A stretch of 60,157 nucleotides of DNA, counting the filler, from Hausera hauseri (Eukaryota): NCBI GenBank assembly GCA_046269625.1. It is 11 parts of 11 records of this genome, joined end to end, with 100 filler letters (N's around TTAATTAATTAA, not from the genome) between each part and the next. Parts side by side here need not be neighbours in the genome. Positions count along the whole stretch, not along the records: positions 33,931 to 39,977 come from JBJURY010148534.1; positions 40,078 to 46,174 come from JBJURY010141205.1; 9 more parts are not named here. One strand, written 5' to 3'. The number at the start of each line of letters is the position of its first letter. The stretch's first letter is position 1. A model generated the notes under the pieces. That model searched no databases. It was not told the origin of the DNA and was given only the letters and a program-made list of their open reading frames with translations. Of this stretch, positions 1 to 58,175 are shown one piece after another. The translations under genes were made by a program, and so were the position numbers.

Positions 1-210
1 CTTAAAAAGCTATGGGGAGGATTGCTAGCATTTGGCCAAGTCTCATCAGGATTCTTAGCTGTATATTTTTTGCTTCAAATTGCAAGGACTATTGTAGCGC
101 AGATTACGAGTGGGTTTATTAATTTTCAATTATTTGGATGTTCAAAACGTCTACTAACAGCGATATGCCCACCTATTGCAAAGTGTCTGCAGCATGCCTT
201 TCTAGCACAA
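1..210 (+). CDS. Putative C-terminal transmembrane anchor/tail of a chuvirus-type glycoprotein, in the same open frame as the protease
   Basis: Frame 1 is open from base 1: LKKLWGGLLAFGQVSSGFLAVYFLLQIARTIVAQITSGFINFQLFGCSKRLLTAICPPIAKCLQH. Fits the W..F.FG..SG..hydrophobic..G....FG.S..LL pattern I recall from chuvirus-derived glycoprotein C-termini. No stop before LIDTG. Confidence 0.7.
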
Positions 211-3200
211 TGGATGAGGGATCAGGAAAGACGTAGTGGTGGGAGAGGCGATGGAGAAACAAGTATTTTAGGAAAAAGAAGTCTTAAAGGTAGTGTTAAA
301 AGTCGTAGAAAGTATCAAAAGGAATCGACTAAAAACAAAATTATGAAGTGGATTAAAGGAATTAAAGTAGAGAATCAGAAACCACCACGATACAGTTCTT
401 ATTCAATTCACTCCCAAAGAATACATAATCCAACCTATCTAAGTCGACAATTACCTCCAATACCAATAGAATCCACGATTAAAACTGAAAATGTCCCAAT
501 GAATACCATAAATGAAGATCAGCTTGATCAGTTATATTTAGGAAGTAAAGCTCAATACATAAAATATAGTGATTTGAGGAAACAATTAAAAACACTTCCC
601 ACAGATAAGGGTCAAACGTCTAATGACCCAAATATAGAATTACTGCTTCCAACTTCTAACAATGAAATGCGATTGCAAGTGGATATGCCCAATGTCAGTA
701 GATTCAATGCATTACGTACAGCACAACGATTACAACATACTAGACGACCTTATACAGTGGTCACAATTCACAATGATTGGAATGTAGATGCTCTAATTGA
801 TACAGGATGCGATGATTCAATAATTAGGCTTGGTTGCATTCCACAGAAATATCAACAAGAAATAAAAGAACCTAAAAAATCAGAAAAGGCTACTGTATCA
901 GGATGGGGAGATAAATCTTTCCTGGCAGGACAATGGACAACGACTATTATACTATACGGCAAACGAATTACACATACCTTTAAAATATTTGAAAAACTTT
1001 TAGAAGATGTCGTCATTGGATTAGATTTACAACAGAAATGTACAGGACGATATCCTAACCTGGAAACGGGACAATTAGCTATACCACCAGTTGAATTTCG
1101 ACCAGGAATAGTGATAGTACCAGAAGCCATAGTACTGGAACCACGCTGAGAACACATCATTCAAGGATATGCCACTAATAATTTAAACGGAACACAACTA
1201 TTTGAACGAAGTCTTAAATTATATCAGAAAACAGGAATCGAAGCAGCATGCAGTATTAGTCCCATAGATGAAGGAAACTTACCAATACGCCTAGTTAATC
1301 CTACACAAGAAGTAGTGATCTTAAAACCGATAACGGTTTTAGGATCATTATGTGCAATATCCCACATAATTGAACAAGAAGAATCAAAAACAATCCTAGA
1401 TAATGTTGAAGCTATCCATACAGAACTTCAAGGAGCTGATAAAATAAGATTACCATGTATGTTAAAACGACATGTGCAAAGCATTGCTAAGAATTATAAC
1501 GAATTAGGTCGAACAGCGAAAATTGCTCATAGAATCCATTTGTTAAATGAACAACCAATTAGACAAAGACCATAAAGGGTTACCCAAGAACTACAAAAAG
1601 ATGTGGAGAATCAAATACAAAAAATTCTAGAAAACGACATTATTCGAAAAAGTAATTCACCTTGGTTGTCACCAGTAGTAGTTGTGGCAAAAAAGATGGA
1701 GGATCTAGAATTTGTATTAATTTTCAGAAGTTAAACAAACAAACAGTTAAAAATTCATATCCTTTGCCAAGACAAGATAATATTTTTGATCGATTGACCG
1801 GTTCAAAATATTTTACAACCATGGACTTACAGACTGGTTATTGGCAAATGCCAATTTACGAAGAAGATAAATACAAAACAGCCTTTTCGACGGGGAAAGG
1901 ACAATATGAATTTAATGTAGTACCATTTGGTCTTTGTAATGCTCCTTCGACCTATCAAGAAGCCGTAGAAGCTATGTTAATGGATTGTGCTCATGCTATG
2001 GTGTATATAGATGATATAATAGTATTTTCAGTAGATCTCGCAAATCACTTAGATGATTTAGAAAAAGTGTTAAACTTGCTAGAAATTTGGGGTTTTAAAT
2101 TGAAATTAAAAAAATATAGATATGCTATGCAACGTGTACAGTTCTTAGGCCATTTTGTATCATCATCTGGATTAGAAGTCGATCCTGAGATAGTATCAGC
2201 TATCACAGCATGGCCCATACCAAAAACTGTAACAGAGATAAGAGCATTCATCGGAACAGCTAGCAAATAGGGAAAACATATCCTTAACTTCAGTATTATT
2301 GCTAGACCATTTTTTGAATTAACAAAGAATAAAGTACCTTTTGAACGGACAATCGAATGTCGAGAAGCGTTCGACATATTAAAAAAGTTGTTAACTACAG
2401 CTCCGATTTTAAGATTTCCAAATTTTTAAGAGCCGTTTCTTATTGTTACAGATGCTAGCCAAACAGGACTAGTAGCAGTTTTATCACAAATGGACCAAGC
2501 AAATAATCAGGAATTCGTTATAGCTTATGCTAGCAGAACTTTGTCGGTAATAGAAATAAAATATCCAGTAATTCAGAAGGAAATGTTAGCCATTGTTTAT
2601 GCAGTAGAAAAATTTAGATATTATGTATGGGGACAAAATTAAAGTTTATACAGATCATGAGCCGCTTTCGTTTTATGCAGGATGCAAAGACCAATTCTCA
2701 CGATTGAAAAGATGGCAGTTAAAACTACAAGCTTATGATACCACTATATATTACAAACATGGAAAAATTTACAGAAATGCTGATGGATTATCTAGAATAC
2801 CAGCTACAAAACAAGAATTACAAAATCTCGAAACTGAAAGTAACCAAATTCATATTTCTCAAATGTTAATATTCCACAAAGTTCTACACGATGATCAATT
2901 GACCGAGACCGATATTCAAAAACTAATATGTTTACAAGAAAAGGATCCAGAATTACAAATAATTAGAGAATTTGTGAGAACAAAGAAAATTAATATAGAA
3001 GAGAAAAACTTAACTCACCATTTACTAAACCAAGGATCGCATTATCTTATTATTAATGATCTGTTAAGATATTGGCACCGTAATAGACAAGTAATTGTAA
3101 TACCATTGGAAAAGCGAAAAGACATACTACACCAAGAACATGATGGGATGTTGGCGGGCCATCCGGCTTCTAAAAACTTTAGAAAGAATCAAAACAAAAT

Positions 3201-4138
3201 ATTATTGGAGGACTGTTCAACAGGATGTGGAAAAATGGTGTAAAAATTGTCAAATCTGCGCAATTAGACGAGCTGGAGGACTACGCAGTAAACCGCAATT
3301 ACACTTTATAACGTCACCAGAAAGACCGATGGAATTTACTGCGATGGATATTGTCGGTCCATTACATAAAACTCAAAGTGGCAACCAATGCACAATAGTA
3401 TTTATTAATTATTTGACACGATTTCCGGAAGCTTTCCCAATGCCTGATAAGACAGCGTTCACCGTTGCAGCTTTGTTTGTCGAAGAAATAGTTTTTCGAT
3501 ATGGTGTTCCACGAAAAATATTAACGAATCAAGGAAAAGAATTTATAAATCATATCTTTGAAGAAGTGTGCAGACTATTTACTATATACAAACTTAAAAC
3601 CGCCGCATATCACCCACAAACAGATGGAATGGTAGAAAAACTAAATGGGACATTATTGTCAATGCTGGCAACAGTAACAAATGATCGGCAAGATGATTGG
3701 AATCTATTTATTCCAGCCTGTATGTTCGCTTTGAGATCTGCGCCACACACGGCAACGCATAAATCTCCCTTTTATTTGATGTATGGAAGAGAACCATTAC
3801 TACCCACAGATTTAGAATTTATACCAAATGAAGCATTGGCAAAAAGTGAACCAGATTATGTAAACTATCTAAAGGAAAGATTAACGAAAGCTTGGGCTTT
3901 AGCCCAGTCACTAACATTAGACTATCAAAAACAATATAAAAAGCAATATGATAAACATGCCAGACCCCACAAAATTCAAGCAGATGATTGGGTAATGGTT
4001 TACGACCACGTAGCAAAGAAAGGTCTATCACCCAAACTAACTCGCCCTTGGAAAGGACCTTATCAGGTTGAACGAGTTACAGACAACAATATTTTTATTA
4101 AAAAGAAAGTAGGCAAAAAAACGAAATTGTTTGCTTAG
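1..4138 (+). mobile_element. pol: Decayed Ty3/gypsy LTR retrotransposon pol (protease-RT-RNase H-integrase), preceded in frame by a membrane-protein tail
   Basis: Protease LIDTGC (Asp codon 799-801); RT motifs YPLP, DLQTGYWQ, PFGLCNAP, YIDD; RNase H TDAS, YASR, YTDHEPL, NADGLSR; integrase H..GH/CxxC, MDIVGP, AYHPQTDGMVEK and WKGPY. Order PR-RT-RH-IN. Several stops and frameshifts. Confidence 0.95.
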
Positions 4139-4225
4139 CAGCCGAATGGTGCATATTGACTTCTCCGCCTATACCGAAAAGCAAAAATCCATCAATAAAA
4201 CAATCAGAGGTTAAAAAAAGATAAA

Positions 4226-5599
4226 ATGAAAGTAACAAATATTACCGTACCATCCTGCTCCACCTTATTTGAAAACCGCATCTCTTACGCAACATTTTTT
4301 TTATCCTAATTTGTTGCTTAGAAATTTACGAATGTCTACCAGCAATATATATGGGATGGAGACATCAAAACCAGATAACTTATTTACATACAGATATTAA
4401 TATTCCACATTTGGAATAACAAATCAATAGAATTCCTTGGTCTTTGTACAATTGAACCGCCTGGTGGCGCATGTTTTTATCCCGTGGACAAGCCCACAGT
4501 GCAGCAAACTTTCGCCTTCTTTGATCAAGATTCAACTACAATAGTTGACAGGTGAGAAACGGAACCTTTGCAGACACCTTCGTTTCGAATCTTCAGAGAA
4601 CCATTCTTAGTTTATCAGTACTTATGGACTAAAGGACAATCCGGAGTTTTAGTACAGATTGAAAGAATTAGACTAAATTTTACTAAACAAACAATGACCC
4701 CAAAATGGTCTCTTGATTTACCACGTTTTCCTATATATTATAATAAGCCGACTTGGGTCAGAATTACTATTCCGATAACCGGAACAAACATATATTTCAT
4801 ACACGACTGGTTAATTCCCCCTGTTCAACCTTTATTTACATCAGGATCATTTTTGTGGAAAGCAATCCCCTATTCTTCTATTGACGTATTACGAACACGG
4901 TAGAACCCCCCAGTGTTGGAAGCCACATACATAGGGAAACATTGGTCGGTATCCGTTGGACCTTCTTCGCCTCGGCTTATAGTAATAAAGAAAGAAAATA
5001 TTCACTTTCGACCCTCTGTATGTAGGATCCAGTTCACAGTATTGGTAGATCCCTCACATCGTGTCATAATTAATACTACGCTAAACTTAAAACATTTATT
5101 TTCGTCTAAGTCGTCACCTTGGATAAAACCAAGAGTTGTTATGTTAAACTCACGATTTGTTTCTACGAGGATGGACCTCCTAAGTACAACAGTTAAATTT
5201 ACACCTAATGAATCATTATTAAATTTAACAAAACGCAAACGCAATACAACACGTTTTGTAACTTCTAAACCTTTAGAAAGGCCCATACCATTTAAACAAA
5301 AATTTCCAAATTGGAAACAAAAGTTTGCTTTTTATTTCTTCTCACACATACCTGCTCCAACAACAAGTGCGACAGCATTATCAAAAAGAACTTCTATTGC
5401 TCTATTTTATGTATGGATAATTGTGATAATCGCTTCAGGTATAATGATTATAGTTTGCTTTTCTTTGGCCATGTACTTAAAACTTTCTAATGAAATATAT
5501 CTAAAATATAATTTGTACGAAAATGTAATGCTGTATGATTCTCATTTTAATGTAAATTATTTTGCTGCCGATGAAATCGCCGACAGACCTTGTAATTAA
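4226..5599 (+). pseudogene. Disrupted accessory ORF downstream of integrase, resembling a type I membrane protein
   Basis: ORFs 4568-4903 and 4913-5599 are in the same frame, split by one TAG; C-terminal hydrophobic segment IALFYVWIIVIIASGIMIIVCFSLAMYL; frameshifted signal-like FFILICCLEIYEC near 4295-4335. Confidence 0.5.
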
Positions 5600-6545
5600 A
5601 TATATAGAGTTATATTATGACGATTACACTTGGCCATTGCCTATTACTTTCTGGCTAGGGCAAGATCTTCTGATACCTATTTATTTTTAATGACTCTATT
5701 CGGATGAAATTAATGGTCACTTTATAACCCAAAACTTGATGTCAGATGTTGTCAGCGAATGTTCAATTTTTCCTCCAATCCGACTCTTCGCAGGAGGCCA
5801 TTTTGAAACGATATGAAATTCGTGTTGAAACAGAAGAAGCATCTATCAAACGCTCTATGAACGATGTTCAACCATCCTTAATTCTTAAAGTCACACATGC
5901 CCCGTCTACACATGTATGTACCCAATAAATCACCTATTCTATTTCTAACAGAAGTTCTCCTTTCCTGTTCCGTTTACCGATGCATGCGTATGGATACATC
6001 CTCTGTAATTCTATTAAACTTTATCCCACCATCTTAATAATTTCCAATAAATATAAACACAATAGTTTACAGAATCGCTGTATACTAATTTCTCATTGTC
6101 CCCATAATTATGGACATCATCCTTTGTGCAAGATCTTTGAACACGTATCTATTAAGCATTTTCCAACACAACCCAAAGATTTATTACTTACGGTTGCCCA
6201 TGGCTCGATTGTTTTAAATATCCATAAACCATCTTTACCATTGTTACAATTCTATTTATCCACCTACAAGTCCGCTTTTTTAACAGCTGATGTTTAGGCT
6301 ATACTTTGAATTAGAATGTACGGATATTTCTTTATGGCGCCATTACTTAGATAATTCATCTAATAGAAAAATATCACTGAATGATTTAGACTAGATTCAA
6401 AACCCCTGGATCTTTCTGCCAAAATCTATGTTCAAGTTTCCCAATTATATAAAAAATCTTACTTTTGCAGGCCATGTGGCAGCATTCTAGGAAAATCTGC
6501 CTCTATCTGGTGAAGTTGTTCTTGATGATTTCTCTATTCATATAT

Positions 6546-23515: not shown

Positions 23516-26183
23516 TAGAGTTGTCCAGTAAAACTTAAATTACTCGTATGGCTCCAGATGGAAAATTTCCCATTGATAAGTTAGCATTTAATGTGAAAAT
23601 AATTTTTCCCATTTTTGAGGGGTTCTGAGGTCCCTCAAAGCAACGGAGAATATACACCCCCAAAATAGCAAAATTGCCCACATTGATTTGTTATTTCCAC
23701 TTCTATATTTTTTATTTTCATTTGCAAGTAGGTTAAATATTGTTCGCCAATACATTTTGTTTGCCATAATTAAGGCCAGCAAGTTCACGTCACACAGCTC
23801 ACCGCAGTGTCGTTGCATACTCGCACAGTTGAACATGCTAGTGGCAGCGGCTGCTGTAACAACTGCTTGCTGCTGCTCAGTTACTGTGCGTGCAGGTGAA
23901 ACATGACGATTATAAAATTATTAGTGAGTTGAAATCAGTTGACTTGAATTTATGTTGCTAGTGAATTATAAAGTGATAAGTCTTTTTGAGGACAATAATG
24001 TTGCGAATTTTTCGAAGCTGATATTTCGATCTTATTAAAATCTTCGTCAGAGTACTAGTATTCTGACGAAGATCTTAATGCGATCAAAATATCAGTTTCG
24101 AAACATTCACAACATTATTGTCCTCAAAAAGACATCACTTTACAATATCTCACTAAATGTTGGTCCAAAAGAATTTCCGTATTCTATTAGTGAATTAAAG
24201 TAGAAATAATGGCAACCAGAAGCGGGCGTTCGTATATTAACTCGAATGAGATCCCGGTGGAAAAAGAGCAAATTTTATTTTAAAACTGGATAAACTTTTT
24301 GATATTGGTGCACCAGATGCTATATATGAAATTATGAAATGTAGGCTGCCGTGAGAAGAGAAGAAAGGAGAAGACGTAGACTTCTATTTACATCAAAGGA
24401 GGAAAAGGGCAGAAACGATGTCCGGCCATGAAAAAATATTTCAAAATAAGGCTGAAAGTAAAGAAATGAGACAGAAAGCTTTGTACACGCAGTCTGTGAA
24501 AGAGGTGGCTACACAAAGATCGGGTATAATCCGGACAGTCATGAAGTGAACGAATCAGAGGAGAAAAATGAGGTACAAGATGATGTCGAGTTCATTCCCA
24601 AAGTATGCAAGATGAAAAAACGGAATAAGTAAAGATCAAGATGATGTCGAGTTTATTCCCAAAGTATGCAAGTTGAAAAAACGAAATACGTAAAGATCAA
24701 CCTACCAAAAAATAATGCAGTGCGAGGCCATCACAATTGCAGCAGGTAGGCTCATGCTGTCAGACAAACAGAAAACGATGTTGGTTTCTGCAGAAATTAA
24801 AGCTGATAATGGAGATCTCAAAGACTTTGACATATCACGGCAAACCACGCGCCGGAAGCAAACGGCTAACAGGCTACAAATCGTAGAAGACGTTGCCCAC
24901 TTATTCAAAGAAAACCCATCTCGCTCCGCTGTCCTCCACTGAGATGGAAAACTGATAAAGGATCACCTTGGAGCAGTCAGTGAAAGCCTTGCTGTTATTG
25001 TGTCAGGTGCTCCTGATTACACTGAAGGAAAATTGTTATGCATACCAGCTCTGTCAGACTCAACCAGCCAGTCACAGGCTGAGGCAACACTCGAGTTTGG
25101 GGAAATTTTACCCAACATTATAGCGCTAGTGTTTGACACCATAGCCAGCAATAGTGGTGTAAAGAGAGGGGCAGCAAAAGTACTTGAAGATGAAATTGGA
25201 AAAAACAGTTATACTATCTTGCCGGCACCCTATTCTTGATCTACTCATAGATGCAGTATGGAAACCTTTGTTTGGCAAGGTTGTTAGATAAGATAACAAC
25301 CTGTTTGCCAAATTGAAAAAAAGCATGGGGTCATTTTGATCTTAAAGCTCCTATCGAAATGTTACAGTTTGACGATCATTGGTTGAATCAACTGAAAGCA
25401 CGCTTAATCAAAGAGCTTACTACACTTCTGTCAGGTAGTTCTACGGAAAAATGTACATGCGATGACTATTGTGAATACGCTGAAAAGGCTTTGGTGATAT
25501 TGAGTGCAACGCCGCCACGGGAAATCGTTTCATGAAACCCGGCGCTATTCATCAAGAACGGTGGATGGCTTACAATTTATACACTATGAAAATGTTTATG
25601 TTTGCCAAACAGATGGAGTACGATGTCACAACTGTCGACATGCTGCGCAAACTGAACACATTTTTCAGCCTATTTTACGTGTCATTGTGGATGAAAGCCG
25701 GCTGTGACACTGATGCCCCTGTTCTTGATTTACAGATAATTTGTAACATGATAGACTACAAGCGGATTGACCGTGATGTTGCCGACACTGTCCTAAATGA
25801 GCTTTTCAAGCAGTGCTGGTACTTGACACGAGATCGGCCCTTTTGTACTATACCGTAAGCAATCATCAATTACCGACAGTGCCAAACAGGGCATAGCATT
25901 TAGGCTTGACGGTATTCCAGTTCCAGAATACTTCCGATTGGGGAGACCGGTATTCCCAGAATTGAAGCGAAACACATCATTTGCAAATTTAGTGGGACCA
26001 GAGTCTTACACTTTTTTCGCAGTCTTAATGTAACCATCACATGGCTCACCAAACCAATTAGTCAGTGGAACAGCGATATTAACTTGTATACTGTCAAAGA
26101 TTTCGTCTGATCGGTGAAGATTGTGAACGATACGGCTGAACGAGAAGTGAAACTATTGACTGATTTCGCAATCTGTACAACCA
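23516..26183 (+). mobile_element. Decayed hAT-superfamily (hATm-like) DNA transposon
   Basis: Transposase relic about 24200-26183: LH*DGKL, VFDTIASNSG..GAA, CRH, DDY, PGAIHQERWM, WYL, VNDTAEREVKL. Putative left end TAGAGTTGTCC at 23516; 61-bp internal tandem duplication from 24576. Confidence 0.8.
23968..24144. repeat. About 175-bp palindrome made of two inverted Penelope-type 3' ends, each with a hammerhead-like motif
   Basis: Arms pair around GTACTAGTAT (about 24056). Minus arm CTGACGA-A-GATTTT-AAT-AAGATC-GAAA-TATC keeps both core boxes; plus arm has GAAA changed to AAAA. Similar to 20941-21000. Confidence 0.8.
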
Positions 26184-26799
26184 CTGTTTTGGATCCCGAC
26201 AACTCTGTTGGGTAATCCGGTCAACACCCAATCGGAAATGTTAGGGCGGGTGCAGTTGTATATAGTGTATATAGTCGAATGTGTGTTGGAATCATATGTA
26301 TATTGTATATATAAATTTTATGTTTAGTGTTAATTTGTATGGGATTGAGTCTGTTTGAAGAAATATGTGATTGAAAATGTAAAACGTTATGAATATAACA
26401 AAAGTTATAAAAATGGTGATGTAAACATAGCACAGTTCCTATCGGCAATTGGGGAGCGGGAAAACTGGGATGTTGCTTATGTATTGAATGATTCACCATA
26501 ACTATTTCCTTGTTCCTCTGAGTTCTCCCCCCAGGGCTGGGAATCGGACGTCGGCCCATTAACACAAAAATGCTGGAAAAATGATGAATATATATAATTA
26601 TTGACCAACCAATAATTATCAATTCAAAAATTTGATAACCAAGATAGTATTATTGTTATTATTGCTGTTGTCCGTCAGTGGCCGGAAATGCATAATCAAA
26701 CAAGAAAATCACTCAAATATGTGATAACAATGTCGATTCAAATTACCCTTTAAATTTTATTTCATTTTTGATATTAATCAGAGAATTAACTACCATTAA

Positions 26800-27300
26800 T
26801 CATCTCTTTTGGAATCTTTTGCATTCAATTAATGGAAATGAAAATTTAAATATCGTTCGAGGTCAACCAAAGGGTTCAGAAATTATATTGCGATACATTT
26901 ACATGGGCAAAGTAAATATTACTTGCAAAAAGGTTGGAAAATTGATTGAGATTGCAAAACGAATTGACGTTATTTCGTTGTCGGAATTATGTGCAAAATT
27001 TCTAGTAAGCAGTATCAGAATTAGCAGTTGTTGGAATTCATGGAAATTAATCAAACAACTAAATCTCTCTATCTTGTCGAAGAACAGACTTCTTTCTGGG
27101 GAATTTCTCGGAAATTTCTAACGAAGGGGATTTTCTAAAATTGAGTTATGAAGAGTTAGAAGATTTATTAGATAAAAACAAAGTGAATGTTCCGACTGGA
27201 ATATTCCTGTTCGATTCTATTATCAGGTGGATGGAATATAAAATTGTTGATCATGAATAGTTCTTGGTTGCTCTGTTAAACGATTTGAGATTGACTACGT
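26800..27300 (+). pseudogene. BTB-BACK (Kelch-like family) relic
   Basis: ILRYIYMGKVNIT..LIEIAKRIDVISLSELCAKFL..ISSC, then frameshifted FLEISNEGDFLKLSYEELEDLL..VNVP..FDSIIRWMEY; stops follow. Confidence 0.75.
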
Positions 27301-31973: not shown

Positions 31974-33190
31974 TGTGAGGAGGAATTTAAACGAATATTA
32001 ATGTTTAAATTTAATTCAAAGTTAAATCAATAAACAGCCAAGATAAAGTCAAGAAATTCAAAAACAGGATGAAAAAAAGAATCATTTAATGAGTGAAGGA
32101 GATAATTGTTATACAAACTTTTATAATAAATTTCTTATGGAGAATTCAATCTTACAATCATCGAATGGCGTTGAGGTCGGAATGGTATAAACGCGATCTA
32201 CGAACATGGTGAACCATGCTTCAAGAGACTTCTTCGAGAAGAAATTTATGCCAAAAAAATTTCAGAAAGGTGATAACGTGGATACCTTTATTGGAAAATG
32301 CGAGAGACTTCGACTTCATAAAGATGTCGGAGTCGGATCGGGAAACTGCGGTCCTGTGCCTATTGGCGGACGAAGAACAGGAAAAATACCATCTGGTGAT
32401 CCAGAAGGTGAAAGGTTACCAAAATCGGTTAATACAAGCCTTTGCAAAAGCCACAACGCTGTGCGGAGACCTGCGGGAGTCATTAAATTACATAATGAAT
32501 GGGGCAAAACCGGACGCCTACTTCAACAAAATTGAACAATTGGCGAAGAGCATTCTTAGCCACAAAGTAACATTGGAAGCCCTAACAGCGGAATTGATGA
32601 TCCACTGTTGCGACAATCCAGAGATGAGAAAGGAAATTTATCGTTGTGACGAAATAAGTGTGGAGCAAATCAAAGCGAAAATACGGAAGGTCCACGAAAT
32701 TGCAACAAAGACGGAATAGTTAAACGCACTCAGAGAATACACTAGAGATTGTCGACAAAGTTATCGGGATGTGGCGGCGAATAAATTTGACAAACCAAGA
32801 CAGGAAAGGAAGGATTTCAAACTGCACAATACGCAGGCAAAGTGTAGGATGAAATGCTGGTCGTGCCACAAAGACGGGCACACAAGCCGGACATGCAACC
32901 TCCAACAAGCACCAAGATGTTTTGGTTGCGGGAAAGAAGGGCATATTAACAGGAATTGTCCGGAAGAAAACCCATAATATACTATGGGTGCAGTCAACAA
33001 GGGCACATAAGACGAAATTGCATAAATATGATATGCAATCGATGTCACAATAGAGAGCACAGGGAAGAAGAGTGCTATTCAAAATTTGACAAAAATAGAA
33101 GACAAATTACGTATACCAACAATTTCAAACGTGCGGGGTATGGTCAGAAAAGATATGGCGAGAGGGTGAACAGCTGCCTCTCGAGTTGAT
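31974..33190 (+). mobile_element. gag: LTR retrotransposon 5' part: putative short LTR, PBS-like site and gag with four CCHC knuckles
   Basis: TGTGAG..AATAAA..CTTACA (31974-32156), TGGCG at 32166; frameshifted gag 32206-33189 with CWSCHKDGHTSRTC, CFGCGKEGHINRNC, YYGCSQQGHIRRNC, CNRCHNREHREEEC. No pol follows. Confidence 0.75.
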
Positions 33191-33930: not shown

Positions 33931-35580
33931 CCCAAATTTTGTATAATATTTCTGTCGTTACCTTTTTATAATAACCAACACCCAGTAATGACTCCCATTT
34001 TGGTTGGTAACGCGAGTCCTCTAATATTGTATGCATTGCTCTGTTTAATGCATGTGTATGTTGGCGAGGAAAAGCAAGAAATTGTCTGAATGCCTCTACT
34101 TCTTTTGGTCGGTAAATACCCTTTGCTGCTGTATTTTGAAATTTATCATCGGTTATTCCCTTTATCAAACTGGTTCCTCTCAGTTTGGTAGGAGGTGCGA
34201 TAATACCATCATTCGGTAAACTTACCCAATCTGTTTCGCTACGTCTGAACATGGGCTCTCCTAAGCTAGTTTTACAGTCTCTTAAGATTGTCGGTTGAGT
34301 AGCATTAGCCAATAGTACTCTGGTAATTGGGGTTACTAGCCTCGGTACGTCCTGATCTATCACTGGAAGCTCTTGTATACACCTGTTTTCTTCCACATTG
34401 ATCGGTACGTTTTTCTTCTCACACTCATGCGTCAATAAAACCTCTCCAGTTACTTGTCCAAAAACATCTTCCTTCATTGGAATTATTGCTGATACCAACT
34501 CAGGATTTGCGTATATTAGAGCTAGTTTAGTTCTCATGATTTCCAAGCCCAATTTGCAGTCGTTTGATATCATCTTGTGGTACAACTCGGCTATTTCGGC
34601 TTGTCCTTTATAGTAGAAGTAGTCATCTCTGTTCTTCAAATAGTCTTCAATCCGGATGTCCTGAGTCTCGAGTTTGAACGTTCTGGCATTTATTTCTGTC
34701 TCGGCTACAAAAAATGTTTCATAGTTGGTGGCATACATTACGACGTCGTATCTGGTTAGCATAGCTTTCATTGCAAATTTTAATCCATGAGTATCAGAAA
34801 TCAGTATAGTAGATGTGGACTGTTCGGCTACATCTTCTCGTAGGTTAGAGTTAGTTTCTGTCCTACTTATGTAGCGTTTTCCTGTCGTCTCGTTGAATTT
34901 AAGCTCTTTAATTCTGATAAAGTTGCAATCGGTCTTTGCTGGGGGTTCCCAAATTACTACAGAACTTCGAAACGGGCATGTGTCATCCTGAATGTGGCAC
35001 TTGTGGTTCTCGGTGTAAAATTTGGTAACGCTATGGAACATCACTTTCTGTATGCGCATTTCGGTTTCGTAAAAATCCACTACCACTACGTTTGCTTCTA
35101 ATCCTTTTCCTGTATCGTACTCTGTACCTTGACAATGTCCGGTGTGCATATCAAGTCTTCCTGCTGCCACTTTATATACCCTGATTATTTTTCCTTGCTG
35201 CATTTCCATTTCCATACTGTCCCATTTTATCCTCCCAGTTTCTCTAGCTTGCTTACAATGCTGTCGCTCTAAATTCATCGGAATTAGTGGGGTTGTTGGC
35301 TTGATTATTGACGAGTGTCCATGTAGCAGTCCGCAATGGAAAATGCTGCGAGATCGTCTCAACATACATTCTACTCCATCTAATGCAATTAGTTCGCGTT
35401 GTTGGTATAATACGCAATTCTTTTCTTTTGTTTCTAATTTGTGTGGTCTCGCGTCTTCACACATTTCTAAGTCAATTAGTGAGTATTTTTGGCCAAGTCT
35501 AAATTTGTCACAATCATATACCGTGACTGCGCCCATTTGTTTTACTAGCATCATCAGGGTCAGGAAGTTTATTAGCCAAT
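33931..35580 (-). CDS. env: Chuvirus (Jingchuvirales)-type envelope glycoprotein ectodomain, uninterrupted, cut by contig end just before the TM segment
   Basis: Motifs VYDC..YSLIDLEMC..LYQ..VEC..RSIFHCG..HSSI, VVIWEP..C, ATNY, C.L..KLALI..P, FGQVTGEVLL..C, CIQELPV..PITRVL, GIY..AFRQFLAFP, ending ILYKIW; more than 540 codons without a stop; preceded by hydrophobic WLINFLTLMMLVKQMGA. Confidence 0.85.
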
Positions 35581-36058
35581 TCGATTCGTTTCCTTTGCGA
35601 TTTCCAGTTACATTTCGTAGCAGCTCTCCGAATCTATTGTTATCGAAGAAGAATCCACTCTGATGTTCTTTCTCTTTTTCTAATAGCTTAGATCAGTTCA
35701 CTTCTCAGGATAGTTTTCTGGCAGCCTTCCTTGAAAGCTAGTAGCCTTGTTGAACTCATTTTCCCGATTCGGATTGGTTCTGATGACCAGGTATAGCAAC
35801 ACTTTCCTCAGTTCCTATATGATATTCTCTACCATAATTTTCTCAATTATCATTTCGTCACTTAAAGTGCTCTTGGTTGATTTACAGAGAAGGTTCTTCA
35901 TGGCCTTTGCTGCGTTCGCTATGGACTTCTCCTTCTCGTCTAATATATCACTGCTGAGGCTAGAGTGGTTTACTATTCGTGTCAAATCTTTTATCAGTTC
36001 GTTCATTATCCGTGCTAACGATCGGTATGGACATCTGCCTCAATTCTCTAATCAAGTC

Positions 36059-36520
36059 TCAATTATAATAGATTTCATCTCGTATCTTCCATGGCCTACC
36101 AACAGGACGTTTCTGTTTTGTTACCGCGGGTATATTGCCATCGATCGGTACTAAATTTTTATCATACTGCTCATTATCTTCATTCGTTTGTAAATACTCA
36201 AAATATACTGCTGCATCTCGAACTCCTATTATTCGTCCTACCTGTTGTTCTGCTTTAGCCTTTCTTATAGCCTCCTCTTTTGTTTCGTCGACAGCGGTAG
36301 TTACCACTACTCGGTTTACCTCACCTGGAGTAATTCCAACTTCTACTAAGGATTCCGACTCGTCTAATATCCTTCCTCTAAAATAGAGTCTATAGTTTAG
36401 CTCCTGGACGTAACCATTGTTCTTTATCCACAGCAATACATCTTTCACAAAGGAACGCGTAGTGAACTCTTGTTTCTTCTCGTCCATTTAGTCAGCCGTT
36501 ATTCTTATTTCATTCGTCTC
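36059..36520 (-). CDS. Ubiquitin-like domain followed by an AT-hook-like motif, segment of the retroelement polyprotein
   Basis: EIRITAD*MDEKKQEFTTRSFVKDVL..YRLYFRGRILDESESLVEVGITPGEVNRVVV fits the RLIFxGxxLxDxxTLxxxGI ubiquitin-like signature; no C-terminal GG; KRPVGRPWK at about 36085-36112. Confidence 0.7.
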
Positions 36521-39500
36521 CTCGGGCCTTGACCTTAAGAATTTTGCATATTCTTTGATTAAAAGTTTTGGTACCGCACTGTAAATCGTACCTTCGCTGG
36601 CTAATTTAGTTAGGGTAGGAACTAACATCTTAATTGATTTTCGGTAAGGTCTACGTTGATTAAATTGAATAGATCCTTTTCAGTTTGTGCCGGGTCTAGA
36701 AGCATTTCTACACGGAATTTCTGATCTGGTGGACACATCTCCGTTTCGTTTAAGTGCACGGGAGTTTTTGGGTTTTCAGCTACCATTGCGTTTAGATAAA
36801 TGTCCCATTCATTCTCGTCTTCGGGTAATCCAAAACCAGTCTCTGGAGTTTCTAACGGCCGGGCTAAGTTTGCTTCCTTTATTAGTTCTCTTAATTCTCG
36901 TAGTTTTTTGTTGCTTTATAACCATTTGTCTGGTTCGAAAACAACGTCCATTTCCAGAATTTCGGCGTAATACGGTTAGCAACTGGCATAATTCTTAGGC
37001 TGATATAATCCCTTGTTCCTGATAATTAGTTAACTCGGAAGTTACGTCTCTTTGCCATCTTTGCACAAATTGTGACTTGTCAGCCTTTTCTGCTTCTGTC
37101 AGAGAATACTTAACCTTATATGGTTCCAGTCCTTACACTAGTTTGTCTAATATCATCGCTCTCTGTTTAGTTTTAATGCAAGTTTCTTCGGCTTGTCGTA
37201 TCTGTGGCAGCAGCTGTTTTAGATTCTCGTCACTAATTTCTGCCATTTCCACCATCAGTAACACTAATTCATGCATCTCATTGATAATTTTTAAGTCTGG
37301 GTCCATTTCGTCAAGCAGTCTTTTTACAAACTTGGCCTCTTCGAAATTAAGATGTTGGTCATTCCTTATTTTAGTTATTTCGATATGATACCTTTGATCC
37401 GTTCTATCGATCTTTTCTTGTGGTTGATGTAAGAATGTCACTATTTCTTCGAGGATCGACTGGTATTCTGGGCAAACATCTAACGTCTTGAGATCACGGA
37501 CCGATATTTCCCCTATAGGCTTGGCGGTCAGATATTGAACTCCTACTAGGCAGACTCTTCTTAATCTTGGATAAAGGTCACAAGTCCGATTCCGTTTTTT
37601 TTTCAAAGTCTGTTTCCTCTATCATTTTATATATGTCGTCGAGTATCGTCATTTCCTGTTTCTTTTCCATAAAGTCCAATTAACGCAATGCCTCAAATTG
37701 GGTTCGAATTTCAATTACTGCTTTGATAGTATCTAGATTCCGAGCGTGTCCCTCTAATCGCTTTCTTACTGAAGGTTCGCTTTCCGGGAATTCTTTTTTT
37801 CGATTTGTTACTAATTTACTCAATCTTGTTATTACTTCGTACCATTCTTTTAACTGATTAGTGTTTTCCGGTTTTGCCATTATTGTCCTGTCTAACATTT
37901 TCTGTGCATCTTCCAACTCGTCATCTGGACATTTAATAAAGTCAATAGTCCGACGGACGTGGTTAATTTCATCCTTATACTCGTCGATTTCGAGGATACA
38001 GGCCAAAATTATTTTCTGTGTTTCGTCGTTATTTTGCTGCATAATTCTCTTTTTTAATCCATATATTTGCGATCTCTTCTCGACCTCGATTTTAAGACGG
38101 TTTTCCAAGATTGTATACTGTGTAATTGCAGTGGCTGCAATTTGTATCATTTCCATTAGTGTCGGAATATCTAATGAATTTATGCCCATTATTCCTAGAT
38201 CGACCTCAGTCCGTTCTTTAACCGGCTTCTTTTTCAGTCGGTCAACTATTGTGAATCTAATTTTTCCATAATACGCTTTAAGTTACGTACTGCTCTTTTT
38301 AATTTCGGGTTTGCTTCTAATGTAATTAATAACGACTGAGCTTGATTGACTCTAGTTTCAATATTTTGGGTAGTTTTATCTTATGCTTCTGGAGTTTTCA
38401 TTCCACTTTTTATCCGGACTTCCAATTTTTGTTTCTAGTTATCTTGTGTTTCTTTTGACACTTCCTCGGGTTGATCTAGATCTATGGCTTCGCTTAGCTT
38501 TCCGTCACCATATAATTTCATCTTTTTATATAACCTCTCTACGAACTGTTGTTTCTTTTCCGAAATGTCCACTTGTCCGCTCATTGCCTTGAATTTCTCT
38601 AGATTCTGTTGTACTACCTCTGGGTTGAGACAATTTGTCCTCATTCTTTTTAATTCATCAGCACTTCCACGAGCGTCTGATCTTCAACTTTTTAGGATCG
38701 AGTTTTTCTTCTTGTTCTGTTCCCTCTTCGCTCGTAGGTAAAGGACATATATCATTTATTTCATTTACGGATTCTGTTAGCTTATCCATTTCATTAATTT
38801 CCGGAATGTTCAAAGCAAACTCAGTGTCGCTCTCCAACGCGGTTTCAGTATCTCTCTTTGTGTCCGACTTCTTAATCATTGGGGATCTCGAACGATCCTT
38901 GCGTTTCCGTCTCATTGATGGGCTACGGCCTCTATTCTTTGTCATTTTAAGTATTAGTGGTTCAAAAAATTCTTTTTCTTTGTCGGTCTCCACCTTCTTG
39001 GTTACCTTTTCTATCGTATATTCGGGTTCTACATCTAAATCTACCTCATCCAGAGTCTCAGGTTTTCCTGTTTCGACTAAATCTTTGTTTATCGTAGGAA
39101 TGTTCTTTTCCGTGCCATATCATTAAGCCTTGGCATGGCAATGGAATGTTCATTTTCCGTCTCTGGTTCCCGCAGGCCATGGTAAACTTCCAATAATCGT
39201 AATGTGCTCATACTCGTTTTTGGCTATTAAAACTTTACGGTTTTTAGTATTAGGTTGGGCCTTTAAAAAGCTTCGTAAGTCTTGTATCTCAATGATCATA
39301 CCCGTGTCTCTACGGACACCGTAAATTGCTTCTAAGTTTTCGTTTTTAATTACATTAGTTTTACTAGGTTCGACAAACGAGACACTTCGCGGATTTGGAC
39401 AGGACCTCGCTATGTGTCCTTCTTGTCCGCATGTATAACAAATTAAGTTGCCATTTCTACCAATCCTTTGTCGGCCATCTTTGTTTAACGGGGATTTCGA

Positions 39501-41359
39501 TCTACTAAGATTCCTATTGTAGCCTTGCTGCGACGGGACCTGCCTAGGGTCTCCGTATTGGCGATTATCGTGATTTCGACTGTCGCTCTGTTGATTAAAA
39601 TTTATGGGTCCATCTAGGCGTTTATCCAAATAATAGTTTGATTTACTAGAAAAACTATTTCGACTATTATCAAAATTCTGATTATTGTATCGATAGTTTT
39701 TGGGGTCATAATTACTGTTCTTGTTCCGATCTCCGTAATTCCTGTTAAGTCGTCTATCATTTTTATTATTCCGATTTCTATCGCTTCGGTCGCTTCGATC
39801 ATTGTCTCTATCGTTTCTGTTACTGTTTCTTGCATATCTATCCAATGCCATTTCTACGTATTGAGCTAATTGCAATGTCCTATCAAAATTCTACGGGCGT
39901 GCTAGAATCAATTGCTTTACTATGTCTTTAGACCAAATACCGTTTATTAACTGCGTCATCATCATGACGTCCAAATCNNNNNNNNNNNNNNNNNNNNNNN
40001 NNNNNNNNNNNNNNNNNNNNNTTAATTAATTAANNNNNNNNNNNNNNNNNNNNNNNNNNNNNNNNNNNNNNNNNNNNTTTTAAAAACGGGGAGGGTGCGT
40101 TAGATAGGAAACAAAAGTCTGTTTGTTATATTATGCTTTTCTCGGACATCTTTCTGTCTGACTTCATTCAGAAGTCGACTTGTAAAACACTGCTATACGA
40201 ATAACTGTCTACATTTATACTGTTATATATAGCCCAACGGCGTCACTAAGGTTGGTGTCAATCGGTGACTAAACTCTGGTGTCACCAGATAGTGAGTTCT
40301 TATTTGGGAGTGATGGATCTTTGCATCTGAAGCAGTTCTTATCTCTTGGATTTTCGTGTTGGTGGTCAGGTTAATGTCGTGAATCAAGGCGACTTACAGC
40401 AGGGTCCCTGAACTCATACGATTTATAGATACATCCCACCATCACGAAAGAGATTAATTTCCTTCCTACTGCAGAACGATAACATCGTCAGCGACTATCA
40501 TTTCTGATAAAATACGGATACCCCCGACATCAGCCAGAATTTCTCATTTTTCCAGGTCACCACAAGAAAATGACGAAATTTCCTGGTCAGCGTGTTATAG
40601 CTGTTCACGTGATTACTAAGCCAAAAATCAGGACAACAATGAAAGCGGATGTGGGAAGCTGCGATAGATAAACAATTCAACCTGTGTAAAATACTGCAGG
40701 GGACCAAAGGGCTCACAGTCAAAGCAACCCTCCCTTCACGGAGTCCGTCATGGACTCTTGGTGCTCCCCGTTTGGAGCAGACAGGGCTCTGCCGCCTGTT
40801 CTTGCGCTCGAGCAGGATGAGGTGTCCATTGGCCGCTCCTACTGTTTGTCCATTTCCTACTGAATGACAAGGTTCAGACAATGGTTGGGTTTGAAAAGCC
40901 TAGACTGAGCTGAAGCCAGCTGCACGGAGGGCGCTAATGTAGACATGTGATGCTGCACTCACGTTCCAGGCGCACTCAAACCGCCGTGCAAGGCAGGGAA
41001 CCCTCCCAGCGAGCAAAGCTCGGTCTTTTGCGGAGTGGATCTGTCCGATCGCAAACAACAAATGTAGACTAAAATCTGTATCACTTGCTAGGCTGGAATT
41101 TTTTTGGCTCACTCTACATCTCTGATGGGCTTGGATGAAATTTTGAGAAGCTGTTTTCACGACTGGTAAAAACAAGCTGTGTTAACTTGTTCGTTACAAG
41201 TGTGCCATTCTAAAATTCTCACGCCCGGAGTGACAGCCCCATTTGCAACCCCCGCCACGCTAGGCACCGATTATACACCATACGAAGCAAACGTTCACTT
41301 GCACAAAAATTACATGATAATTAGAGCCTGTCTAATAAATCAACTTGCACTACGACAAT

Positions 41360-43064: not shown

Positions 43065-44625
43065 ATGTGCAAGTAGGAACACGAATGTACGTAGGGTACG
43101 CATCATAAAAGAAGCACGAATGAACAAGCATACTTCACAGTCACCACTAGGTATTCATCAGGAACAAACAATATAAAGCAACTGACAACCAAATGTTGCA
43201 ACGAGATGCAAGACTACCTGAATAAACAAACGATAAACAGCTACTGTGAAAGTAGAACTTAGCTGTATATAAACTTCACGACGTCGATTTGAAATGGCAG
43301 CGCGGTAGGTGTGAAAGGAAGAAATGAGAATGCGCGCGCAGAGAGTCGCGGGACTGACCCAACGACTGAAGAGTTCAAATCAACAAATGTACCACTGGCC
43401 ACGAAGGGAGGGGGTTTAAGCGCGGAGAACTGGAGGATGAGAGATGAGCAAGTATGAGAGCATAGAGACGGAATAAGAGAGGGGGTTGCATTGTAAGCGG
43501 ATTGCGGGTGGATGTGAGAGAATGAGAGATCTTCTCTCAAATCCACTTGTTCTTCTTACACTGCAAACACTCCCCCCTCTCTAATTCCGCCTATATGCCC
43601 TCTTTGTTTATCTCTGGTCCTGCAGCTCCCCGCGCTTCACCCACCCCCAGCGCAGGGAGCTGGAGGACTAGAGATGAACAATAAAGAGAACATAGAGACG
43701 GAATAAGAGAGGGGGTTGCATTGTAAGCGGATTGCGAGTGGATGTGAGAGCATGAGGGATCACATGCGTGCAGATAGAGACAGAAGTGGGTTAAAGGCAA
43801 GAAATATGAATGTTAAGACCGTTAGGTGAAACATTGTTCAGGTTGTGCACCAACCGCCGCTAAACGGTGTGGCGTGCTTTCTCGTTGGAAGAGCAGAATC
43901 TGATGGCGGTGACGAGAACATCTGTAATCCTTGAGTGGCCGGGGCTATTGAATTGGTTGCCCAAAGGAGATGGCTACTTCAGGATTACAGATTTTTCATC
44001 ACCATTATCAGATTCTGCTCTTCCGACGAGAAGACTCACTGCTCCGTGGAACGGTTGTTTGTGCTTACTCTGAATAATCTTTCACCTAACGGTCTTAATA
44101 TTCACATTTCTTGTCCTTAACCCACTTTTGTCTCTGTCTCCATGTACGTGATAACCTCTCTCAAATCCACTTGTTCTTCTTACACTGCAAACACTCCCCC
44201 CTCTCTAATTCCGCCTATATGTCCTCTTTGTTCATCTCTGGTCCTCCAGCTCCCCACGCTTCACCCCTCCCCCTTTCTTCGTGGCCAGTAGTACTTTTGT
44301 TGATGAAAACTCCTCACTCGTTGGACCAGTCACGTCTCTCTCCGCGCACGCGTCTTATTACTTCTGTAACACCTACCGTGTCGCCCATTTCTGATCGACA
44401 TCGTGGAGTTTAGCTTATAGCTAAGTTCTGTTTTCATAGTGCATGTTTTATCCTTTGTTTCATCATGTAGTTTTGGTTCTCATTACCTCGTTTGTTTGTG
44501 TGCTGTTTTGTCTTGTCTGTTCCTGATGAAGACATAGTGGTCGCAACGTAGTTTGTTTTTTTTCATTCGTCCTCCTTAAGTGAGACTTACCATACCCTCT
44601 GCCTTCTCATTCCTACATGCACTTG
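43065..44625. mobile_element. About 1.5-kb degenerate foldback made of two head-to-head Penelope-like 3' ends
   Basis: Centre about 43956. Minus arm NQFNSPGHSRITDVLVTAIRFC..RLVHNLNNVSPNGLNI and plus arm ..ITIIRFCSSDEK..VERLFVLTLNNLSPNGLNI (GIY-YIG C-terminus); hammerhead-like CTGATGA-AGAC..GTC-GCAACGTA at 44523-44550. Confidence 0.8.
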
Positions 44626-46419: not shown

Positions 46420-48190
46420 AATAAATCGATGAAAATTCCTCCGAATATCCTCAGATAAAAATGCCCGAATTATTTAAAGCTTATATGCAAACGGGCGATT
46501 GGAGTTGGAGTGCCTGGACCACAAATCTTTCGAAAATAGAAAACACTCATCCATAGTTGTGTCAACCTTTTCTTAAAAATTGCGGTCATGTGGGAACTTA
46601 TTGGAAGGAAATGTATAAAAGTGATGTCCAATCTATCCGTACATGTAATGTGAGCATTGACAAGCCTGATAATGATAATCTGACATCTTCGGAACCAGTA
46701 ACAATTTCTAACGACTGAAACAAAATGATAGAGAATCACAGAAGCATCGGTAGTTAATATTAGTTCCTTATCTGGTTTAGGATAAGCTACTATCTTGTCA
46801 GTTTTTAGACCCTCGCTTAAATGATCAAATTGATTGAAAAGTTGACAATGGTTTTTTCTTTTCTGACGATAGAAATGCGAAAGATGTCGTTAATTCGGAA
46901 CAGTGTGGCACATATTTATGAAAGAAATGAAGTGTGCCAAGAAAGGAGCGAATTTCGGTTGTTGTTCGTGGTGGTTGGATGTTTTTAAGCTGAGTTATAC
47001 GGTCTTGTTGAGGAGAGTGGCCAGATTTGCCAATGACATGTCCAAGGAAATTGATCTTGTGTTGGAAAAAAGAACATTTGGAGTAATTTACTCCTAGATT
47101 ATTTTTGGTGAAGTCGTTGAAAGGCTATGCGTAAATGCTCAGAATATTGTTTAGGAGATGACGAAGCTACGCGAATGTCATCTATATGAGGGAATGAGAA
47201 ACTTAAGCCTATGAGGAATGCATCACTATGCCTTTAAAATGTTTGAGAAGCACTACGCAGATCCAAAGGCAAGAAGGCATACTCAAAAAGGTCGAAGGGT
47301 GTTGTTACAGCCGTTTTCGCTGTCAGCAGGAGAGACAAGAATTTGATGGTAAGCTTTATGTAGATTGATGGATAAAAAGATGATATTGCCGTGGAGTCTA
47401 TGCAGAATGTCGTTTATGAGCGGTAATGGATATGCATCCATTACCGTAATGGAGTTTAATTGGTGATAATCATCACAGGACCTGAAAGTTAGTCCTTCTT
47501 GGGTACTAGATGCAAAGGTGAGGCCCAGGGTGACTTTGATCTTCATATGATAACAGCTTTTCTACTTCACTGAATTCGCGGAGAAAGTGGCCTAACTTTC
47601 TGTTTAATCGGCCTTTGGTGTTTAGTTACAATGTAGAACAGGCTTGAGGTTGGGGTCTTTCTTTAACGTTCTAGGACAAAAGGTTGTAACGTAGTCACGA
47701 AGAGTTACGCCCAATTGCATAAATGGAGTGGAAGCTGAGAGATCGTGTCCGTGTTGGCAATTGTTTTCGTTATTACTGTATGAACGGAAACGTTAAAATC
47801 GGGGGTTGTCAGTATCCAATTTATCTAATTTAATAATAGATTTCTTTAATATAGACTGGCATCACGGTCAGTTGCGCAACAAGTGGTGCATTATTTTGCG
47901 ATTTTGTATGATTGATTGTATTTTGAATCACACGATGCTGTCTGCAGTCGATAAGTAAATTGTGATGCGATAGAAAATCAGAGCCTAAGATGGGAGTTTT
48001 GATGTCAGCAACAATGAACTTCCACTGAAACAGACCAGAGAAACGTGCTAAGGTGAAAGAAAGCTCTGCATTGCCAGAAATATGTAACGCTTGTCCGTTG
48101 GCAGTAAAAAGCTTTGCAGACGTGGGAAGTATTTTTAAGAAATCGAAAGATAAAGCAGTAATGAGACGGTTGTACCAGAATCAATCAGGA
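46420..48190 (-). mobile_element. Second, more decayed CsRN1-like Ty3/gypsy pol (protease-RT-RNase H)
   Basis: IDSGT, TANGQALHISG..FTLARF..ILGSDFLSHHNLLIDC and DAYPLPLINDILHRLHG..INLHKAYHQI parallel the element at 17600-19354; ITDAS, CTDRL, DFIDLS remnants. Confidence 0.85.
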
Positions 48191-57465: not shown

Positions 57466-57466
57466 A

Positions 57467-58175
57467 TTAGACTATATGTTGTTGATTCCTTGTTGTTTCT
57501 TCCTCTGTGTACTCCAGGAACTCCTTGATGGTTGTTTGACCAGTTGTATCAATGACACATTTGCGGCATTTTTTCTTTAATTCTGCAGCATCAACTGGCC
57601 GCTGTCTTTGACTCTTTGATGGAGCCGGTACGCCTGATGCGCCTGATGCGCATTTTAGTCCTGCATCTGGCTGTACTGCATGCTGTGCAACTGGCTTATG
57701 TTCACTAAAGATGATCTTCTTTGACTTTGATATGAAGTCAGTCAAATGATCTTTGTGATATTCATAAAACTGTATGTATTCTCCATCACATACAGCCTTA
57801 CATCCTGGGCAGATTTAATAGATGATCCTATTGAATTTGTGTCCATAATAGCACTTCATGTTATTGTGGCAATTCTGATGGTTGTGTACTACACATGTGC
57901 AATACACATATGAACTGAATCTTTTATTGTCCTTTAGCACGAAAGTCATTATTGGCATATTGTTTTTTCGACTTAGTGAAGAAAATCAAGTGTTGCTTAT
58001 GGACATTGTAAAAGTCTTCGTAATTGGTTTGATACACTACCTCGCATGTAGGGCATATATAATACTGAACCCTGTTGTAAATATGACTATGTATTTCGTC
58101 ATAATAATGTGGCAATTTTTAGGCTAATGGATTTGAGCCAAACATCCTCTGCAAAGTTTGCACTTCTAAAAATCA
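57467..58175 (-). pseudogene. Disrupted ORF upstream of polB with a tandemly duplicated Cys/His domain
   Basis: Unit 1 YNRVQYYICPTCEVVYQTNYEDFYNVHKQHLIFFTKSKK; unit 2 FNRIIY*ICPGCKAVCDGEYIQFYEYHKDHLTDFISKSKK. Confidence 0.55.

Follow-up and report, generated by a model that had tools for sequence, protein, structure and literature searches.

Contig 7 of the window analysed here, a 60,157-nucleotide stretch from Hausera hauseri (assembly GCA_046269625.1) that consists of 11 separate contigs of 4–8 kb each, joined by N-linkers and holding mostly animal-type repeats, raises the question of whether a Ty3/gypsy retrotransposon can carry its envelope protein (Env) inside a single polyprotein, between Gag and Pol. 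In contig 7 (33931–39977) we very probably have the 5′ two-thirds of a Burro-like, high-copy element of the Ty3/gypsy type that is dead in this copy and carries a class III Env, and in contig 1 (1–6545) the 3′ half of another member of this kind. The working element would have one open reading frame (ORF) of the form Gag-(accessory, ubiquitin-like [UBL], BCL2-like)-signal-G-TM-PR-dUTPase-like-RT-RH-IN-(signal-FN3-like-TM), where G is the glycoprotein, TM a transmembrane segment, PR the protease, RT the reverse transcriptase, RH the RNase H and IN the integrase. This reading is carried by the domain order that natural relatives keep within a single frame free of stops, by the fold of G and by the hydrophobic stretches on either side of it.

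On the minus strand, contig 7 reads over its full length as a decayed coding frame. Its order is the capsid end of Gag, a CCHC knuckle, ∼970 codons without an assigned domain, a helical hairpin with the UBL domain, an internal signal and G. This bears out the preliminary description, which had read the contig as one decayed frame of about 2000 codons from CCHC through charged and helical sequence and UBL to a glycoprotein; the reading path must cross ∼19–20 breaks (stops and shifts) in the 4,285 bases upstream of G. This path is far more open than chance, because its open-frame cost is 22 compared with 62.5 ± 4.4 (minimum 46) in 100 second-order Markov controls. The knuckle matches zf-CCHC (PF00098) in Pfam at E 9.9e-8. 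The capsid remnant is a weak match, yet it is the best among the window's 66 frames and lies at the expected place; it is interrupted by one stop at 39893, and the remaining Gag lies beyond the contig end. Pfam alone gives the UBL domain as ubiquitin at E 0.016 only, whereas a profile of this stretch together with 6 relatives matches ubiquitin chains in PDB (single-domain chains, E 2e-7 to 1.5e-5), and the first named Atlas match is PF11976 Rad60-SLD/PF00240 (score 0.89, a lead only). The second-best match of the UBL profile in the window is a decayed ubiquitin-like copy on the minus strand of contig 10 (50347–54489; E 0.043).

The accessory region (36640–39150) gave no Pfam family at cut-off in the ORF pieces scanned, and comparison with the pre-G regions of 18 relatives found no common module beyond the Gag nucleocapsid and the helix plus UBL. 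A Pfam scan of the broken window pieces gave no match to MATH, BIR or ankyrin. The basic GRP motif after the UBL domain is presumably AT-hook-like. In the stretch that may be BCL2-like, 2/300 shuffles score equally high and the C-terminal GGW motif is absent, and the BCL2 profile was not significant on the plain frames. It had been claimed earlier that no RT lies between Gag and G, and indeed none was found in contig 7 with 20 relatives as tblastn queries; no pol domain is present in contig 7, and pol is known from contig 1 and the relatives instead.

The G frame (35692–33932) is stop-free for 587 codons and matches PF24664 (Monjiviricetes_fusion) at E 3.7e-44 over profile positions 6–540 of 653, ending with the contig just short of the membrane anchor. 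Its AlphaFold model (pLDDT 88) finds chuvirus glycoproteins as best Foldseek matches (E 8e-34, TM-score up to 0.68), and among solved structures it finds herpes simplex virus (HSV) gB at E 2e-13. Chuvirus (Jingchuvirales) G thus gives the best structural matches and has a cysteine pattern in common with the window G, but identity is only ∼20% and chuvirus G is a gene of its own beside N and L. The same profile retrieved the chuvirus-like genomes L001 and L002, and their G is homologous to the window G (E 2e-16 and 5e-10). Both of these look complete in IMG/VR, with gene orders G-N-L and L-G-N. By its predicted fold, G is a class III fusogen, as the chuvirus-type glycoprotein first proposed for this contig would be, and the gB-like fold is accompanied by a signal and by a membrane anchor that is known from contig 1 and the relatives. 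Hydropathy of the signal-like stretch is under the 1.9 threshold in the window copy, whereas 6 of 15 G-internal relatives exceed it. The G frame has its first Met at residue 47, within the hydrophobic stretch 39–50, with 46 open codons upstream, in line with the ∼45 reported before. Because this Met falls inside the signal, G is without a workable start of its own.

Contig 1 gives the pol side. Its positions 1–1146 are a single 382-codon frame from the G anchor through the protease, and RT, RNase H and integrase follow. As had been proposed, contig 1 begins where the G of contig 7 stops and runs into PR-RT-RH-IN, with PF24664 positions 538–609 in frame with the protease. Contigs 1 and 7 overlap by three PF24664 positions (538–540) only, their DNA differs there, and neither blastn nor tblastx matched contig 7 to contig 1. 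Since there is no DNA similarity between them, they are different elements, and the earlier caution that they are related elements at best and not one copy was well placed; the link between them may be drawn by analogy only. The contig 1 RT and RNase H are 42–50% identical to those of G-internal relatives. For the dUTPase-like linker, the sole PDB match of a three-sequence profile is a dUTPase at E 0.36. The decayed tail after the integrase has an open-frame cost of 6.5 versus 15.4 ± 2.5 (0 of 200 controls as low), and no homology was detectable between it and the post-integrase tails of the relatives. Assignment to Ty3/gypsy follows the PR-RT-RH-IN order and the GPY/F motif in contig 1 and the relatives, together with the Gag knuckle of contig 7, where the capsid end is weak. 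Two other assignments were rejected. Anakin combines a BEL/Pao pol with G downstream of the integrase, whereas G precedes the protease here and pol has the above 42–50% identity to gypsy-type relatives; Troyka has a CX2CX8-10HX4C knuckle, no env and no GPF/Y motif in the available description (PMC12440569), whereas the canonical knuckle, env and GPY are present here.

A phmmer search with the window G over 1.84 billion representatives returned 448 matches at E<=0.001, and the best of these are long polyproteins with G internal. A protease follows G in the same protein in 11 of the 16 best matches (14 of the 16 were scanned), in 8/9 further relatives and in 2/3 cluster members. CCHC, helix plus UBL, G, PR, RT and IN occur together in P0006, P0158, P0160, P0161 and P0162 (2,627–3,865 amino acids). 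On DNA, P0160 is one 3,703-codon stop-to-stop frame in contig L003, and L004 is open for 3,426 codons from UBL past IN. A BCL2-like domain stands directly before G in several relatives (PF00452 at E 1e-3 in P0005 and P0159). Env in frame between gag and pol is established for the clade by five complete proteins and, for the G-PR junction, by contig 1; Gag-to-G continuity in contig 7 itself exists only through breaks. The intact relatives and the fold of G together support the order Gag-X-UBL-signal-G-TM-PR-RT-RH-IN as a single polyprotein, which the preliminary description had put forward. A word-index search for longer G relatives found only P0002, an element with env after pol. No locus was found for P0001 in viral contigs or for P0006 in GTDB genomes; NCBI lists P0006 as a hypothetical protein from a Flavobacteriaceae metagenome-assembled genome, most likely because animal DNA was placed in a bacterial bin.

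The same gene order would also arise if Gag and accessory-Env-Pol were in separate frames in this subfamily, linked by a programmed shift or a splice, an arrangement that may exist in some GAG-ENV-POL elements. Three stops and a probable frame change lie just after the Gag knuckle (39152–39105), where the single length difference listed concerns about half to two-thirds of the depth, and ORFs start after Gag in P0004, P0016, P0153, P0156 and P0157. Moreover, Chary & Hayashi (eLife, PMC13524379) describe an ORF order, and the word ‘polyprotein’ occurs 0 times in their main text. However, ten relatives are open from CCHC through G into the protease (P0006, P0008, P0009, P0014, P0018, P0158–P0163 in part), and the ORFs that begin after Gag may be broken or cut copies. 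We consider separate frames improbable and keep the single frame.

In a FastTree tree of 58 G ectodomains, the window G falls in a 25-row clade of polyprotein-internal G (Shimodaira–Hasegawa support 99), apart from 33 rows of chuvirus and post-pol env. This tree omits 57 of 90 non-family rows, and three of its 24 ‘internal’ rows (P0005, P0011 and P0012) are without a protease on record. G follows the integrase in P0002, P0071 and P0039, and post-pol G is in other clades than the window G. The contig 1 RT groups with the same G-internal proteins (support 91/94); the RT tree, with its two outgroup rows and without named gypsy references, is unfit to classify clades. These groupings bear on the idea that G is a chuvirus glycoprotein, either domesticated by the host or recently endogenised, which lies beside gag debris; in its favour one could cite that G is the sole unbroken part and is homologous to the G of L001 and L002. 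G groups with polyprotein-internal G and not with chuvirus G, no N or L gene is nearby and no start codon precedes the signal. In addition, the differences listed in G fall at codon positions 1–2 in 8/9 private versus 1/7 shared cases (Fisher p 0.009), as expected for neutral decay and not for domestication, although these 16 differences are a small, tool-selected sample. Domestication or recent endogenisation is already largely refuted, and we regard it as very improbable.

Contig 7 belongs to a large repeat family. Contigs aligning to it number 11,567 of 15.5 million in run X1 and 1,170 of 9.6 million in run X2, and they cover all 30 bins of contig 7, mostly at 80–95% likeness. The family is thus multi-copy, while both copies in the window are broken. 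Six breaks lie between UBL and G, of which two are private to this copy: near 35734, 95% of the aligned depth differs in length from the shift, and at 35817, 99% has another letter in place of the stop. The copy differences listed are 40 of 1,553 substitutions and 12 of 30 indels.

The distribution of breaks is odd, with 0 in the 587 codons of G versus ∼19 in 1,400 codons upstream (expected 8.0, P 3e-4; for stops alone, weighted by exposure, expected 4.1, P 0.016), and a mosaic assembly is suspected. Contig 7 would then combine several copies, through assembly or recombination, and its G would stem from a copy younger or more abundant than the one on the Gag side; the summed depth is indeed several-fold greater over G than over 37769–38172. 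On the other hand, X1 and X2 pieces tile across 35362–35733 and the G of this copy has private changes of its own. We take a mosaic to be unlikely, and even if true the order is unaffected, since relatives carry the same order on single frames.

Several points weigh against the single-polyprotein element as we read it. Four of the six UBL-to-G breaks, and the stops at 39152, 39125 and 39122 after Gag, are not among the differences listed, so a fixed break in the contig 7 subfamily is possible. No molecule was found that carries both contig 7 and a pol gene, and no aligned piece spans contig 7; among the matches listed, to which the 106 aligned pieces that overhang its ends do not belong, no piece links G to pol. 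The one copy spanning Gag-G-Pol that the preliminary description had called for was not found among the X1 and X2 pieces listed, and relatives hold that order in a single frame. No long terminal repeat or long direct repeat was found in contigs 1, 7, L003 and L004, of which contigs 1 and 7 are cut inside the element. Branches are long (1.62 for the window G and 2.19 for the contig 1 RT), and the RT group at 91/94 is under the tool's bar. The likeness to Burro is drawn domain by domain from the published description, and we infer the processing and infectivity of the element. Coordinates of all features are collected below.

Table 1. Features of contig 7, contig 1 and two related loci; window positions unless a locus is named
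Feature	Position	Strand	Basis or remark
Gag capsid C-terminal helices, remnant	39837..39971	-	Profile of 9 relatives' Gag, E 0.024
Gag nucleocapsid region, R/N/S/D-rich	39153..39890	-	Single CX2CX4HX4C knuckle at ∼39440-39393
Charged/helical accessory region, decayed	36640..39150	-	Open-frame cost far under controls
Helical hairpin + ubiquitin-like domain	36299..36637	-	Profile from 5 relatives, E 2.8e-7; stop at 36490
Basic GRP motif after UBL	36086..36112	-	Similar pre-G motif in P0004, P0007, P0008, P0015, P0153, P0156, P0159
Possible truncated BCL2-like remnant	35743..35904	-	Weak: 7-relative profile, E 0.076, positions 15-72 of 103
Internal signal-like hydrophobic stretch	35525..35578	-	Directly precedes conserved YDC start of G; aligns with relatives' stretch
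Class III fusion glycoprotein ectodomain (chuvirus G/herpes gB type), predicted	33932..35524	-	PF24664; model; Foldseek
G membrane anchor + tail, in frame with protease	4..228	+	PF24664 538-609, E 4.4e-10
Aspartic protease	742..1047	+	PF00077, E 2.9e-5
Degenerate dUTPase-like linker between PR and RT (weak)	1150..1377	+	Aligns with L003, L004
Reverse transcriptase + RNase H	1689..2736	+	PF00078, E 3.8e-29; PF17917, E 1.2e-6; stops and shifts
Integrase: H2C2, core, GPY/F motif	3173..4099	+	PF17921, E 2.3e-9; PF00665, E 1.2e-7
Post-integrase coding tail, decayed, ends in membrane-spanning stretch	4136..5600	+	Open-frame cost
In-frame signal, FN3-like domains, Ser/Thr-rich stalk, membrane anchor after integrase	L003:10066-11208; L004:9101-10282		
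Separate downstream ORF, RNase T-type (DEDD) exonuclease	L003:12085-13473; L004:10617-12107		E 1e-3, 1e-5; beside coiled-coil ORF

The novelty implied in the preliminary description does not stand; Burro was named there as a giant single-ORF element, without the SUMO-like domain, BCL2-like domain and env that its ORF holds in frame. According to the Burro section of a review (Arkhipova & Yushenova 2019, PMC6431247), ORF1 of Burro holds in one frame Gag-CCHC, SUMO-like, BCL2-like, env, PR, dUTPase-like, RT, RH and IN. Thus Burro (GYPSM1), a giant gypsy element of planarians, agrees with the window family in having one ORF, a CCHC Gag, a SUMO/ubiquitin-like domain upstream of env, an in-frame env that separates gag from pol, and PR-RT-RH-IN, as far as this section describes it. 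It also has the BCL2-like domain just before env that is found in the relatives (with a doubtful candidate in the window, at E 0.076 with 2/300 shuffles), a dUTPase-like domain between PR and RT, for which contig 1 has a weak candidate (E 0.36), and ankyrin repeats, which are present in P0153 and P0159; C2H2 fingers occur in some relatives. The same section reports that Burro env matches mononegavirus glycoproteins, that accessory ORFs exist, that decayed fragments are common, and that MATH, BIR and ankyrin domains vary among Burro elements. As an example of natural expression, BURRO1 rises after smedwi-2 RNAi (PMC8532177). Burro has two or three knuckles where contig 7 has one, and its env is likened in the review to gypsy Env/F proteins, whereas the window G is class III by predicted fold. 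The section does not mention a post-integrase FN3-like membrane protein or the tandem proteases of the relatives. No named Burro protein was among the relatives returned by our searches.

Furthermore, a catalogue of gB-type GAG-ENV-POL elements exists for Nematoda, Bryozoa and Platyhelminthes (PMC13524379, citing Sacco et al. 2022), and the accompanying Supplementary file 1 has six Schmidtea mediterranea, ten bryozoan and ∼36 nematode entries. These HSV/gB-type errantiviruses resemble the window family, as described there, in their Ty3/gypsy pol and in a chuvirus-like, gB-fold env upstream of pol. Besides ‘polyprotein’, the words ‘in-frame’, ‘fused’, ‘ubiquitin’, ‘fibronectin’ and ‘Burro’ are absent from the main text, although its figures and sequence repository may show such features; we infer that the Schmidtea entries are Burro, a point on which the text is silent. 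The same PF24664 glycoprotein family is used by Anakin (BEL/Pao), according to the available descriptions (PMC10084718, PMC12440569), and by the GAG-POL-ENV gB-type gypsy element P0002. Hence contigs 7 and 1 are real, correctly read, and members of a known Burro-like, gB-type GAG-ENV-POL layout.

The handling of polyproteins by enveloped RNA viruses is the basis of the processing steps that we propose. In the relatives, hydrophobic stretches stand before G, after G and twice after the integrase. Gag would be made in the cytosol, and the internal signal would then send G to the lumen of the endoplasmic reticulum, where host signal peptidase would free its YDC end. The G anchor would return the chain to the cytosol with Pol attached to the tail of G, and during budding Gag and Pol would be cut by one or more proteases of the element itself. 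Particles might then fuse with other host cells, germ or stem cells being an example of their targets. Short of splicing or early termination, this would yield Gag, Env and Pol in equal amounts. In P0008, P0153 and P0156–P0163, each polyprotein has two to seven motifs like those of aspartic proteases, some of them after the integrase, and we speculate that multiple copies might dimerise within one chain. For the UBL and BCL2-like domains, the most likely role would be to modulate protein turnover and cell death in the host, as hypothesised in the review (PMC6431247).

An FN3-like motif follows the integrase GPY motif in 7 of 10 G-before-pol relatives with GPY, and it sits between a signal-like and a membrane stretch. 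Such tails are found in L003, L004, P0004, P0006, P0153, P0158, P0161 and P0162, and a further FN3-like copy lies between the L004 proteases (4802–5050). One L003 domain models as a seven-strand sandwich nearest to FN3/Ig, with middling values for a common fold (pLDDT 70, Z ∼8); its model gave no Foldseek match at E<=0.001, and the alignment gave E 1.4–1.5 only in a PDB sequence search and an Atlas score of 0.87, a lead only. In herpesviruses, gD and gH-gL are the partners that bind the receptor or trigger gB. The FN3-like membrane protein may be a candidate attachment partner for the fusogen. A full-text search of the literature did not find such a post-integrase protein together with a fusogen and gave one unrelated paper, although Repbase and the figures and repository of the eLife article (PMC13524379) may hold it. 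A wider proposal, which we offer tentatively and hold to be rather unlikely, is that Burro-like elements form a wide clade of genuine enveloped retroviruses of invertebrates, also outside planarians, which encode two-component entry within a single polyprotein. Ahead of pol, a class III fusogen would act together with a fast-evolving FN3-like type I membrane protein located after the integrase, which would serve as receptor binder or as trigger of the fusogen, and BCL2-like, ubiquitin-like and DEDD-exonuclease accessory genes would be added.

The remainder of the window holds other material, while a search for tRNA genes found none. Two bromodomains in shifted, intron-less frames (12227–13317, minus strand) are probably a processed BET-family pseudogene, and a methyltransferase-like ORF in contig 2 (8906–9469, minus strand), for which no database match was found, resembles, we assume, a TRMT2A-type tRNA methyltransferase exon. 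Other decayed repeats or genes lie at 16597–19354, 47833–48180, 32213–32716, 50367–53014, 19555–20861, 55798–57814 and 26696–27118; among them are two related gypsy pol copies (contigs 4 and 9), a knuckle-bearing gag (contig 6), a BEL/Pao element (DUF1759), a Penelope-like RT with GIY-YIG, a Polinton-type protein-primed polymerase and a BTB domain. Long inverted repeats of miniature inverted-repeat transposable element or foldback type are present in contig 5 (∼23959–24155) and contig 8 (∼43067–44622).

The architecture matters little as a discovery: an in-frame env between gag and pol has been in print since 2019, and a catalogue of gB-type GAG-ENV-POL elements exists. For the question of gB-type entry without herpes-type partner glycoproteins, as raised in the eLife article (PMC13524379), the FN3-like protein would be a concrete candidate. 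The present elements are useful in confirming that this layout is that of a coherent clade, of which many intact members are unnamed in metagenome assemblies, and that its env is class III and not F-like.

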